DNA of 64,000 nt from Escherichia coli. GTDB lineage: Bacteria > Pseudomonadota > Gammaproteobacteria > Enterobacterales > Enterobacteriaceae. The notes below the pieces were generated by a model. The model was not told the DNA's origin and made no database searches. It saw only the letters and a list, made by a program, of their open reading frames with translations. Position numbers and translations under genes: made by a program. The stretch lies in assembly GCF_030013595.1 (NCBI RefSeq), contig NZ_CP122768.1. One strand, 5' to 3'. Positions 8,348 to 53,138 of this stretch are shown here, piece after piece. The number at the start of each line of letters is the position of its first letter. Position 1 is the stretch's first letter.

Positions 8348-9174
8348 ATTCGACGGCTAAGGCCCATGATATCGAGGATCTTGGTGGCAATCTCTTCTAC
8401 CGAATAATTGGTACTGTTAATCCACGGGATCTGATTTTTACGGTACAACGCTTCCACTTCCGCGACTTCCATCCTGCACTGACGAAGCGAGGCATAGCGA
8501 CTGTTCTCCCGACGTTCCTCGCGAATCGCCGCCAGTCGTTCCGGGTCGATAGTCAGGCCGAACAATTTATGCTGAAGCGGTTTGAGCGACGCGGGTAGCA
8601 CCAGATTATCCATATCGTCGGCAATAAAGGGGTAGTTTGCCGCGCGGATACCAAATTGCATTGCCAGATACAGACTGGTGGGGGTTTTACCACAGCGAGA
8701 AACGCCGAGCAGGATCACCTGAGCCTGGTCCAGATTGCGCAACGAAATGCCATCATCGTGGGCGAGGGTGTAATCAATCGCCGCAATGCGCGCATCATAT
8801 TTATTGAGATTATTAGGGTTAAGGCCATGGGTACGATGAGCAATCGGCGTGGGATCCAGTTTCATCTCTTGTTGTAGCGGGGCAACCAGTGCCTGAACGA
8901 TATCCTGGCAAAAGCCTTCACTTTGCAAGATGATGGCGCGAATTTCCGGCAACACGATGGAGTAGAAGACCAGCGGGCGCACACCTGTCTGGTGATAAAT
9001 TGCGTCAATCTGATCCTTCACTGCCCGTGCACGGCTCTCATTTTCGACAAACGGCAGCGTAATGCTGCTGATAGTGACGGGAAATTGTGACATTACTGCG
9101 TGTCCTAATACCTCCGCAGTTATTGCCGTACCATCAGAAATATAAAAAACGTGGCGATCAACAGCATTATCCAT
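8341..9174 (-). CDS. ppsR: PEP synthetase regulatory protein (kinase/pyrophosphorylase)
   Basis: 277-aa ORF with P-loop GVSRCGKT; divergent from ppsA. Confidence 0.9.
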
Positions 9175-47012: not shown

Positions 47013-47825
47013 ATGATCATTACACGAGCAGACCTGCGAGAATGGCGTATCGGAGCGGTGATGTATCGCTGGTTCCTGCGCCATTTCCCACGCGGCGGTA
47101 GTTATGCCGATATTCATCATGCACTGATTGAGGAAGGATATACGGACTGGGCGGAGAGTCTGGTTGAGTATGCGTGGAAAAAATGGCTGGCGGATGAAAA
47201 CTTCGCGCATCAGGAAGTTTCCTCTATGCAAAAATTGGCCACAGATCCCGGAGAGAGAGCATTTTGTAGTCAGTTTGCCCGCAGCGACGATCATGCTCGC
47301 ATCGGCTGTTGTGACGATAACGCCAGAATCGCAACCGCTGGGTATGCTGCACAAATTGCCAGTATGGGTTATAGCGTGCGGATTGGAAGTGTCGGCTTTA
47401 ACAGTCACATTGGCAGCTCCGGTGAGCGTGCACGGGTTGCTGTAACCGGCAATTCTTCGCGGATAAGCAGCGCTGGAGATAGTAGTCGGATTGCGAATAC
47501 CGGAATGCGAGTACGCGTTTGTACATTGGGTGAACGGTGTCATGTCGCCAGTAATGGTGACCTGGTGCAAATCGCCAGCTTTGGCGCAAACGCCAGAATT
47601 GCCAACAGCGGCGACAATGTACACATCATTGCCAGCGGTGAAGATTCAACAGTAGTGAGCACGGGCGTGGTCGACTCAATTATTCTCGGGCCAGGGGGAA
47701 GCGCCGCACTGGCATATCATGACGGCGAAAGAGTTCGCTTCGCCGTCGCCATTGAAGGTGAAAACAATATTCGAGCCGGAGTCCGCTATCGCCTTAATGA
47801 ACAGCATCAGTTTGTTGAGTGCTGA
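47013..47825 (+). CDS. ydhT: uncharacterised protein with about 13 tandem 9-residue repeats
   Basis: 270-aa ORF; central region is periodic x-R-[IV]-x-x-x-G-x-x. Confidence 0.8.
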   Translation: MIITRADLREWRIGAVMYRWFLRHFPRGGSYADIHHALIEEGYTDWAESLVEYAWKKWLADENFAHQEVSSMQKLATDPGERAFCSQFARSDDHARIGCCDDNARIATAGYAAQIASMGYSVRIGSVGFNSHIGSSGERARVAVTGNSSRISSAGDSSRIANTGMRVRVCTLGERCHVASNGDLVQIASFGANARIANSGDNVHIIASGEDSTVVSTGVVDSIILGPGGSAALAYHDGERVRFAVAIEGENNIRAGVRYRLNEQHQFVEC

Positions 47826-49566: not shown

Positions 49567-49872
49567 TCAGGCGAGTTTTGCCTGATTGATTTGACTAAGT
49601 GGCTCATTGACATCGAAAACTTTGGCGACAACTTCCTCAACGCCGAGATTTTTCAGTCGGGCAGTATGTTTTTCCAGATAGGCAAGGGCGCTTTTTTCAT
49701 CAGTAAAAAGGTAGATCCCACCGGCTTCGTGGTTCTTTTCACTTTCTGTCCATACCTTCCACAGAAAACCAGGTTCCTGATTAATCGACTCAGCAAGCGG
49801 TTTAAGCTGCTCAGCCATTGCGTCGCCAAATGGGCCATTGAAAGAAAAATGAAGTTGTAACAAAGTTGCCAT
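49567..49872 (-). CDS. ydhR: small uncharacterised protein
   Basis: 101-aa ORF. Confidence 0.75.
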
Positions 49873-49980
49873 AGCGATTCTCCTTCTGATAACGCATACG
49901 AAGACAGTGTAAATCTTTTAACGTATTGGATACAGAGAAGAAACAGAGGGAAAAAAGGAGAAGACCAGATTAAGAAAATC

Positions 49981-50057
49981 TGGTGCGTCCGAGTGGACTC
50001 GAACCACCGACCCCCACCATGTCAAGGTGGTGCTCTAACCAACTGAGCTACGGACGC
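49981..50057 (-). tRNA. valW: tRNA-Val (anticodon GAC)
   Basis: Reverse complement reads GCGTCCGTAGCTCAGTTGGTTAGAGCACCACCTTGACATGGTGGGGGTCGGTGGTTCGAGTCCACTCGGACGCACCA; valV/valW naming is by position and uncertain. Confidence 0.9.
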
Positions 50058-50061
50058 AGGA

Positions 50062-50138
50062 TGGTGCGTTCAATTGGACTCGAACCAACGACCCCCACCA
50101 TGTCAAGGTGGTGCTCTAACCAACTGAGCTATGAACGC
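50062..50138 (-). tRNA. valV: tRNA-Val (anticodon GAC)
   Basis: Reverse complement reads GCGTTCATAGCTCAGTTGGTTAGAGCACCACCTTGACATGGTGGGGGTCGTTGGTTCGAGTCCAATTGAACGCACCA; 4-nt spacer from the other copy. Confidence 0.9.
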
Positions 50139-50446
50139 AACGTTGTAGGTGACAACGGGGACGAATATTAGCGGCAGAGTGGGAAGGTGGCAAGAGGCAA
50201 AACGTATTTTTCTGCGGTATTTCGACCGTTTGCAGAGCTTTTAAGCAAATTGGCTATATTTTGTTGATTTGCAAGGGCGATTTTTATTCAGGATCGCATT
50301 TACATCAGATACAACCCAATAATCCGTGTATCAGAGTTTAAACAGAGTTGTTTGCCACCATCTCAAAATCTGTCGTGGATAAATCCTCCGTAGCCTTTAC
50401 ACTTAGGTAGCAATAAAGGCACACAGATGCAGCAAAGGAATAAATC

Positions 50447-51703
50447 ATGGGATCTGATGCGAAAAACTTGATGAGCGACGGGAACGTGCAAATTGTTAAG
50501 ACCGGCGAGGTCATTGGCGCGACGCAACTTACTGAAGGTGAGTTAATTGTTGAAGCTGGCGGAAGAGCCGAAAATACCGTGGTCACGGGGGCTGGCTGGT
50601 TGAAAGTGGCAACCGGTGGGATCGCCAAATGCACACAGTACGGCAACAATGGCACGCTATCGGTCAGCGACGGTGCCATTGCCACAGATATTGTTCAGTC
50701 CGAGGGAGGCGTAATTAGTCTCTCTACGCTCGCTACGGTTAATGGCCGCCATCCCGAAGGTGAATTCAGCGTTGATAAAGGTTATGCCTGCGGTTTGTTG
50801 CTGGAAAATGGCGGTAACCTGCGTGTACTGGAAGGCCATCGCGCGGAAAAAATTATTCTCGATCAAGAGGGTGGCCTGTTGGTCAATGGGACAACCTCAG
50901 CGGTCGTGGTAGATGAAGGTGGTGAATTGTTGGTGTATCCCGGTGGGGAAGCCAGCAATTGTGAGATTAATCAGGGCGGCGTTTTTATGCTGGCGGGGAA
51001 AGCCAGTGATACATTGCTTGCTGGTGGCACCATGAATAATCTCGGTGGTGAAGACTCTGACACTATTGTTGAGAATGGATCCACTTATCGTCTGGGGACG
51101 GATGGTCTTCAGCTCTACAGTTCCGGTAAGACGCAAAACCTGTCCGTTAATGTGGGTGGTCGGGCTGAAGTGCATGCCGGTACGCTGGAAAATGCGGTAA
51201 TACAAGGTGGGACAGTCATCCTGTTGTCACCCACCAGCGCGGACGAAAATTTTGTCGTAGAGGAAGATCGCGCACCGGTTGAACTGACCGGTAGTGTTGC
51301 ATTACTGGACGGCGCTTCAATGATTATTGGCTATGGCGCAGATCTGCAACAATCAACGATTACTGTACAGCAGGGCGGTGTATTGATTCTCGACGGCAGT
51401 ACGGTAAAAGGTGACAGTGTCACTTTCAATGTTGGTAACATCAATCTGAATGGCGGAAAACTGTGGCTAATCACTGGTGCGGCAACGCATGTGCAACTGA
51501 AAGTGAAACGCCTGCGTGGAGAGGGAGCCATTTGCCTGCAAACCAGTGCGAAAGAAATTTCACCTGACTTCATCAATGTGAAAGGGGAAGTTACCGGGGA
51601 TATACACGTTGAGATAACAGATGCCAGTCGGCAAACTCTGTGTAACGCACTGAAACTACAGCCAGACGAAGACGGGATTGGCGCAACGCTCCAGCCTGCG
51701 TAA
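50447..51703 (+). CDS. ydhQ: autotransporter-passenger-like repeat protein
   Basis: 418-aa Gly-rich ORF with repeated GG-containing beta-helix-like units; no obvious signal peptide or beta-barrel domain. Confidence 0.8.
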   Translation: MGSDAKNLMSDGNVQIVKTGEVIGATQLTEGELIVEAGGRAENTVVTGAGWLKVATGGIAKCTQYGNNGTLSVSDGAIATDIVQSEGGVISLSTLATVNGRHPEGEFSVDKGYACGLLLENGGNLRVLEGHRAEKIILDQEGGLLVNGTTSAVVVDEGGELLVYPGGEASNCEINQGGVFMLAGKASDTLLAGGTMNNLGGEDSDTIVENGSTYRLGTDGLQLYSSGKTQNLSVNVGGRAEVHAGTLENAVIQGGTVILLSPTSADENFVVEEDRAPVELTGSVALLDGASMIIGYGADLQQSTITVQQGGVLILDGSTVKGDSVTFNVGNINLNGGKLWLITGAATHVQLKVKRLRGEGAICLQTSAKEISPDFINVKGEVTGDIHVEITDASRQTLCNALKLQPDEDGIGATLQPA

Positions 51704-51710
51704 AAACACA

Positions 51711-51743
51711 GGCGCAACCCGTGAAGGTTGCGCCTTGTCTTTA

Positions 51744-51744
<1 letters not shown>
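51711..51744. terminator. bidirectional terminator between ydhQ and mdtK
   Basis: Stem ggcgcaacc-cgtgaa-ggttgcgcc flanked by A/T-rich runs. Confidence 0.6.

Positions 51745-53138
<1,394 letters not shown>

Follow-up and report, generated by a model that had tools for sequence, protein, structure and literature searches.

What kind of gene is ydhQ, and how did it come to lie beside a pair of tRNA genes? The stretch analyzed here ("the window") is 64,000 nucleotides (64 kb) of Escherichia coli chromosome (GCF_030013595.1, contig NZ_CP122768.1) with the gene order ydhU-ydhT-ydhS-ydhR-valV-valW-ydhQ-mdtK-ribC-cfa. A sequence-only reading of the window had noted a 418-amino-acid (aa) open reading frame (ORF) next to two tandem tRNA-Val(GAC) genes, had likened its product to the passenger domain of an autotransporter, and had suggested that it may be a remnant of an adhesin locus. 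Both the ORF (50447 to 51703, + strand) and the tRNA pair, the latter called by ARAGORN, were confirmed. YdhQ matches the NCBIfam equivalog NF007409 (PRK09945) over positions 1 to 418 of 418, at 937.8 bits against a cutoff of 830. ydhQ is a known gene, and its architecture and cytoplasmic behavior are already in databases and papers; the present analysis adds measured purifying selection, fixation at the level of the genus, the finding that ydhQ lies promoter-side of valWV, and the recognition of the mdtK-valW spacer as an insertion hotspot. YdhQ is made, it is cytoplasmic, and its sequence is preserved by selection. We consider it likely that the protein descends from an exported passenger and is now a soluble cytoplasmic beta-helix, kept by selection; it may provide an intracellular binding surface.

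The likeness to AIDA-type passengers was upheld by profile searches, by fold, and by collinearity with a YcgV-like autotransporter. Pfam AIDA (PF16168) matched YdhQ in three stretches (E = 8.9e-29; 99.8 bits; cutoff, 27), the strand-loop-strand repeat model TIGR04415 reached 44.9 bits (cutoff, 30), and the Ag43 NCBIfam model aligned over passenger positions 249 to 558. YdhQ has the tandem ~19-residue strand-loop-strand repeats of AIDA-I-type, self-associating autotransporter (SAAT) passengers, together with a weak 18/36/54-residue periodicity. Glycine accounts for 15.3% of its residues, and its isoelectric point (pI) is 4.44. The earlier description of short repeats with GG motifs was therefore right about the repeats, which rest on the PF16168 and TIGR04415 matches, but not about the motifs: the 14 GG dipeptides compare with 9.6 ± 2.6 in shuffled sequences (P ~ 0.07), and GG enrichment was dropped as repeat evidence because it is not significant. 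An AlphaFold2 model built with 15 sequences was all-beta from residue 14 to residue 417 (mean predicted local distance difference test score [pLDDT], 83.9; predicted template modeling score [pTM], 0.76). Foldseek and a sequence search of the PDB agreed on SAAT passengers as the top family, and the model and both searches therefore identify YdhQ as a right-handed beta-helix of the self-associating autotransporter type. As modeled, the protein has the beta-helical passenger that is one feature of type Va autotransporters.

The other features of that class are missing at both ends of the protein. In the first 70 residues, which begin with MGSDAKNLMSDG, the maximum Kyte-Doolittle 11-residue mean is 1.25, compared with 2.3 to 2.5 in five autotransporter homologs, and no Sec signal peptide was found, in agreement with the earlier statement that there is no hydrophobic signal. 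A Pfam search gave no ESPR match, and no membrane-spanning segment occurs anywhere in YdhQ (maximum 19-residue hydropathy mean, 1.28). Because an in-frame TAA sits two codons 5' of the ATG, the N terminus cannot extend further; the in-frame translation upstream of the gene is full of stops. At the C-terminal end, the barrel family PF03797 was not matched even at an E value of ≤1, also as the earlier reading had it, and in the AlphaFold2 model the beta-helix is predicted to continue up to the final residue, that is, with no barrel and alpha-helical linker. Full-length relatives start with a leader or ESPR and continue through AIDA repeats and a complete Pertactin/AC_1 domain to a barrel; they match the autochaperone profile over positions 2 to 120, whereas YdhQ matches only positions 1 to 78 of 121. 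A tblastn search with the N and C termini of homologs against positions 50100 to 50760 and 51650 to 52400 (E ≤ 50) returned no remnant of a leader 5' of ydhQ or of a barrel 3' of it. All matches with an E value of <0.05 lay inside the ORF or at its very start, bar one (E = 0.038; 26% identity) that begins ~147 nucleotides upstream, crosses stop codons, and scores chiefly inside the ORF. Among the window ORFs there was neither a partner barrel gene near ydhQ nor a heptosyltransferase gene adjacent to it. Since YdhQ has no signal peptide, linker, or outer membrane barrel, and since the first rungs and the final third of the autochaperone are also missing, it cannot transport itself. It fails three defining features of type Va autotransporters (leader, full autochaperone, and barrel), and neither "autotransporter" nor "adhesin" is an appropriate annotation.

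Residues 72 to 486 of a YcgV-like E. coli autotransporter (P0102/P0120) are collinear with residues 2 to 392 of YdhQ (28% identity; E = 4e-27), which argues that ydhQ derives from a passenger. The two also have in common the start of the autochaperone, LxGxGxxxxxT...D.lxVxGxxxGd (LRGEGAICLQTSAKEISPDFINVKGEVTGDIHVEITD in YdhQ and LSGNGNFYMRTDMANHQSDQLNVTGQATGDFKIFVTD in the homolog). YcgV-like proteins have a hydrophobic leader, a full Pertactin domain, and a PF03797 barrel, none of which is found in YdhQ, whereas YdhQ has an extra conserved acidic loop at residues 261 to 277. This loop, which has low pLDDT, is ~5 to 9 residues longer than its equivalent in most of the aligned autotransporter homologs. 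By sequence and fold, the closest self-associating autotransporters are Ag43 (Flu), TibA, and AIDA-I (PDB 4KH3, 7KOH, 7KOB, and 4Q1Q). Compared to these, YdhQ is cytoplasmic, lacks the signal peptide, the alpha-helical linker, and the 12-strand barrel, and retains 78 of 121 autochaperone positions. An exhaustive search for distant homologs among 1.84 billion representatives found no known recent donor gene. Its best nonorthologous match was P0026, a 1,534-aa ESPR-AIDA-AC_1 autotransporter with 38% identity, confined to a ~95-residue AIDA super-repeat that is present in ~8 to 10 copies in P0026 and in one or two in YdhQ; P0026 has the full-length secreted architecture and is not syntenic with ydhQ. 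At the DNA level, no second copy or donor gene was found in E. coli, with a median of one place per genome.

The general view is that autotransporter passengers fold only once they have been exported. A YdhQ-pFAST fusion without an added signal peptide was nevertheless fluorescent and cytoplasmic, folding there, and the corresponding agarase fusion was inactive, in a study that treats YdhQ as a "leaderless autotransporter" and reports it as SignalP negative (PMC13101318, 2026). The sequence-only reading had named two outcomes that would count against it, a lack of passenger similarity or an experimentally shown, conserved cytoplasmic function. The fusions supply the localization of tagged YdhQ that this reading had called for, which goes only part of the way toward the second outcome; passenger similarity is present.

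One alternative is that YdhQ is a working surface adhesin, exported unconventionally (leaderless or with a barrel supplied in trans) and aiding early adhesion. With a signal peptide added, the extracellular agarase activity of YdhQ fusions went up, which was reported as surface display (PMC13101318). PMC9110714 ascribes a role in early adhesion to ydhQ, citing Roux 2005, and a few positively selected sites, as in surface proteins, have been reported in the gene (PMC9110714). YDHQ is also listed among the AidA COG (COG3468) genes found in vesicle proteomes (PMC10458587). The display result has no structural basis, as YdhQ has no barrel, and the assay included neither protease-shaving controls nor a test of dependence on the beta-barrel assembly machinery (BAM). 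YdhQ has no signal peptide, hydrophobic segment, or barrel, its autochaperone is truncated, no partner barrel gene lies nearby, and without the added signal peptide the fusions stay in the cytoplasm with their agarase inactive. The reported adhesion role and the vesicle proteome entry leave the adhesin explanation with some weight, but we regard it as unlikely.

Selection on the gene bears on a second alternative, in which ydhQ is a decaying pseudogene, the leftover of an adhesin gene that lost both ends and survives only through lack of time. Truncation at both ends relative to every full autotransporter would fit such a history, as would the absence of any reported growth or phage phenotype for the knockout. 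However, ydhQ is present in 5,424 of 5,426 complete E. coli genomes, nearly always complete, in one copy and in the same context, and it is intact in Shigella flexneri. Orthologs of exactly 418 aa occur in S. flexneri and in at least six species or clades of Escherichia, among them E. ruysiae, E. marmotae, E. albertii, and E. whittamii, and a further lineage (P0018) has a 419-aa ortholog with 71% identity and the same valW-side flank. The ratio of nonsynonymous to synonymous substitution rates (dN/dS; Nei-Gojobori) was 0.07 to 0.14 in all 21 pairwise comparisons, with dS reaching 0.4 to 1.2 and beyond; for comparison, the neighbors gave 0.011 to 0.019 (mdtK) and 0.05 to 0.18 (ydhR). Within YdhQ, dN/dS was ≤0.26 in every segment, with 0.12 in both the truncated autochaperone and the C-terminal tail and 0.04 in acidic loop 261-277, the most constrained segment. 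The constrained parts include the lineage-specific ones, namely, the N terminus, the acidic loop, and the C-terminal tail. The Shine-Dalgarno sequence and start codon are conserved, and published proteomics detected the protein.

None of the usual signs of a pseudogene (dN/dS near 1, variable length, stops or frameshifts) was present in any of the named Escherichia lineages. A neutral relic would not hold its reading frame at such divergence, and ydhQ is therefore not a decaying remnant; we judge the pseudogene explanation to be highly improbable. What survives of the suggested adhesin-locus remnant is the passenger origin, while decay is contradicted by the fixed length of 418 aa, the low dN/dS, the status of ydhQ as a core gene, and detection of the protein. 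The split or insertion sequence-disrupted autotransporter pseudogenes of the laboratory strain E. coli K-12, which also hold partial autotransporter coding sequence, are strain-specific lesions, whereas ydhQ is truncated in the same way genus-wide and under purifying selection. A rare natural knockout does occur in E. coli AR_0013 (NZ_CP032204.1), where a mid-gene ISEcp1 leaves two annotated pseudogene halves.

The history of the locus was surveyed in 80 Enterobacteriaceae species with MdtK as the anchor. In 45 of the 80, the tRNA-Val genes begin 138 to 209 bp past the mdtK stop; these species include Salmonella, Citrobacter, Enterobacter, Lelliottia, Leclercia, Kosakonia, Klebsiella, Trabulsiella, and Atlantibacter. 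The layout of this short spacer is conserved: the hairpin of the mdtK terminator comes first, and the valWV promoter (-35 CTTGCC, -10 TAATAT) lies beyond it. Only the four Escherichia loci have ydhQ between mdtK and valW, and there the spacer measures ~1,600 bp. In the window, homology to the ancestral spacer extends from valW to ~125 bp upstream (near 50263), and the ancestral terminator is gone. Because homology fades near 50263 and the terminator has been replaced, the insert would span ~50265/50290 to 51740. Relative to valWV it is on the 5' side, upstream of the promoter, and not at a tRNA 3' end. Seventeen other species carry unrelated inserts of 0.4 to 4.8 kb between mdtK and valW, including a Rce1-like protease, a LOG protein, an SDR with TetR, a 2-hydroxyacid dehydrogenase, ZinT, a porin with a transporter, and a LysR regulator with an oxidoreductase, which makes this spacer an insertion hotspot. 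No integrase was found among the examined insert ORFs of other genera. The earlier reading had named this junction as a place to seek a full-length autotransporter, and none was found there in the 80 species. In Kosakonia oryzendophytica, a 2,165-aa ESPR + AIDA + AC_1 autotransporter (L079 8864-15361, - strand) lies directly 3' of valVW (tRNAs at 8526 and 8615). This protein shares 28% identity with YdhQ, and its gene is on the opposite side of the tRNAs.

tRNA loci had been put forward as the integration site, and integrases do target tRNA 3' ends. An integrase-borne adhesin island at valVW, eroded to ydhQ, would account for the adjacency to the tRNA genes and could draw on the full-length AIDA-type autotransporter directly 3' of the same pair in K. 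oryzendophytica, but it is very unlikely given that ydhQ is on the promoter side, whereas integrases use the 3' ends; that direct repeats, tRNA fragment duplications, and an integrase are missing; that the G+C content of ydhQ is normal (51.2%, versus 49.8% for the window); that other genera hold unrelated small metabolic or regulatory genes in the spacer; and that the protein in Kosakonia shares just 28% identity with YdhQ and is encoded across the tRNA pair from that position. The absence of an integrase and of direct repeats had been noted in the earlier reading and was borne out, with no integrase ORF in the window and, as the only direct or inverted repeats flanking ydhQ, the two tRNAs and short chance pairs.

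The course of events that we propose starts from the passenger of a self-associating classical autotransporter of the AIDA-I/Ag43/TibA/YcgV type, from which YdhQ, as a soluble cytoplasmic right-handed beta-helix, would have descended. ydhQ would have entered the 138- to 209-bp mdtK-valW spacer along with ~150 to 180 bp of the DNA that preceded it and with a new terminator acting in both directions. On grounds of parsimony there was probably a single entry, in the Escherichia stem lineage, on the promoter side of the tRNA pair and most likely without tRNA-targeted integration. The later course is shown by the data: ydhQ was passed on vertically in one copy as a core gene, with purifying selection over the full length. 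We further suggest, with low confidence, that YdhQ acts intracellularly as a stable beta-helical binding surface.

Published work offers some indications of what that surface might contact. YdhQ was quantified in the total proteome and at the RNA-protein interface obtained by orthogonal organic phase separation (OOPS), where it was among 17 unannotated RNA-binding proteins (PMC11066096), and it copurified with EF-Tu (PMC2672614). Its abundance changed 5.5-fold with vanillin (PMC6561319). RNA and EF-Tu are the sole experimental leads to an intracellular role, and they are weak ones. It is possible, and we put it forward only tentatively, that the passenger was captured without export machinery in the Escherichia ancestor and then selected intracellularly, perhaps at an RNA or translation interface and perhaps by way of loop 261-277.

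Several observations weigh against a selected cytoplasmic descendant with a binding role. Strains deleted for ydhQ commonly serve as neutral controls or offer a site for integration, and neither a function nor a growth or phage phenotype has been reported. A pI of 4.4 and the lack of an RNA-binding motif speak against direct RNA binding, OOPS is a high-throughput assay, and EF-Tu is a common copurification contaminant. The role in adhesion given in PMC9110714 (citing Roux 2005), surface display with a signal peptide (PMC13101318), and the vesicle listing (PMC10458587) all point outward. E. fergusonii is absent from the fetched loci and from the named clusters, and presence in the whole genus is to that extent not fully shown. 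The single gain comes from parsimony and not from a dated tree.

Around the gene, several conserved signals can be placed (Table 1). A 308-bp spacer separates valW from ydhQ, and since the gene and the tRNA operon are on opposite strands, they are transcribed divergently from it. The valWV promoter is kept into Salmonella, Citrobacter, Enterobacter, and Kosakonia in the cross-genus comparison and is therefore part of the ancestral mdtK-valW spacer. The A/T-rich element, for which other genera offer no equivalent, lies where the Escherichia-specific insert borders the tRNA side; it may be an upstream activating region of the valWV promoter or a control site of ydhQ. On the ydhQ side, the Shine-Dalgarno sequence, 7 nucleotides 5' of the start, is kept across Escherichia along with the start codon and ~70 bp 5' of the gene. 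A consensus scan found no strong sigma-70 consensus for ydhQ on the + strand. GGA motifs in the 5' region are compatible with the CsrA targeting reported in PMC5389547, which draws on computational studies and its own omics data and includes ydhQ among proposed new direct CsrA targets that had earlier been predicted only computationally. A site for FlhDC was mapped in the ydhQ-valV spacer by systematic evolution of ligands by exponential enrichment (SELEX) (PMC9962212). Downstream, only 40 bp lie between the ydhQ stop and the mdtK stop. The hairpin there stands in place of the ancestral mdtK terminator, and its stem shows compensatory changes between Escherichia species. No family among the PADLOC defense-system models matched YdhQ at an E value of ≤0.01.

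Table 1. Coordinates of ydhQ, its protein segments, and flanking elements in the window
Feature	Position	Strand	Basis or description
valV, tRNA-Val(GAC)	49981..50057	-	ARAGORN; Rfam tRNA, 69.6 bits
valW, tRNA-Val(GAC)	50062..50138	-	ARAGORN; Rfam; 92% identical to valV
valWV promoter	50165..50193	-	Consensus scan: -35 TTGCCA, 17-nt spacer, -10 TAATAT
A/T-rich 45-bp element	50240..50285	.	Alignment: nearly unchanged throughout the Escherichia lineages, also in the one with 71% identity
Conserved ydhQ 5' region	50376..50446	+	Alignment; Shine-Dalgarno AAGGA at 50435-50439
ydhQ coding sequence	50447..51703	+	418 aa; leaderless, barrel-less beta-helix protein
AIDA/Ag43-type strand-loop-strand rungs, ~aa 26-260	50522..51226	+	Pfam AIDA; Ag43 model; PDB Ag43 and TibA sequence matches
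YdhQ-specific acidic loop, aa 261-277, SPTSADENFVVEEDRAP	51227..51277	+	Alignment, model, dN/dS
Truncated pertactin/autochaperone-like domain, aa 329-403	51431..51655	+	Profile positions 1-78 of 121
Bidirectional intrinsic terminator, common to ydhQ and mdtK	51710..51735	.	Stem AGGCGCAACC-loop-GGTTGCGCCT

The tRNA pair itself varies in number among genera. Two tRNA-Val(GAC) copies are found at the locus in Escherichia, Salmonella, and Enterobacter and three in Klebsiella, Raoultella, Pseudocitrobacter, and one of two Trabulsiella loci (T. odontotermitis); several loci of the Citrobacter freundii complex have none within 7 kb of mdtK. The Rfam family "HPnc0260 bacterial antisense RNA" gave a full-length match at window positions 49856 to 50019 (+ strand), scoring 112 bits where the gathering score is 59. 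The match extends across the spacer between ydhR and valV and is antisense to valV over the 3' part of that gene; what aligns best is the complement of the 3' half of valV (T-arm and acceptor stem), and the remainder is A/T rich. As a small RNA tied to ydhQ this match was rejected, and it is probably a property of the model.

Two further observations concern the neighboring genes. In E. albertii (L001 and L012), ydhS is missing between ydhT and ydhR, while it is present in E. coli, E. marmotae, E. ruysiae, and E. whittamii. YdhT (window positions 47013 to 47825, + strand) is a second repeat or beta-solenoid-like protein, 3 kb from ydhQ: its residues 89 to 232 consist of ~15 tandem 9-residue repeats with the pattern a-x-x-G-x-x-x-r-I/V and a glycine autocorrelation of 0.62 at lag 9, and Pfam names only the N-terminal YdhT_N domain.

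Current understanding of E. coli is little changed by these results until a phenotype is found for ydhQ. They do caution against the labels adhesin and autotransporter, which several papers apply to YdhQ on grounds of homology. That the mdtK-valW spacer is a natural hotspot for insertions may explain the tolerance of ydhQ as an engineering site. A passenger-derived beta-helix that folds in the cytoplasm and is kept across a genus is a useful exception for folding studies and for the E. coli "y-ome." If YdhQ is indeed a passenger exapted to an intracellular role, it would become the first type V passenger documented to have been domesticated in the cytoplasm.

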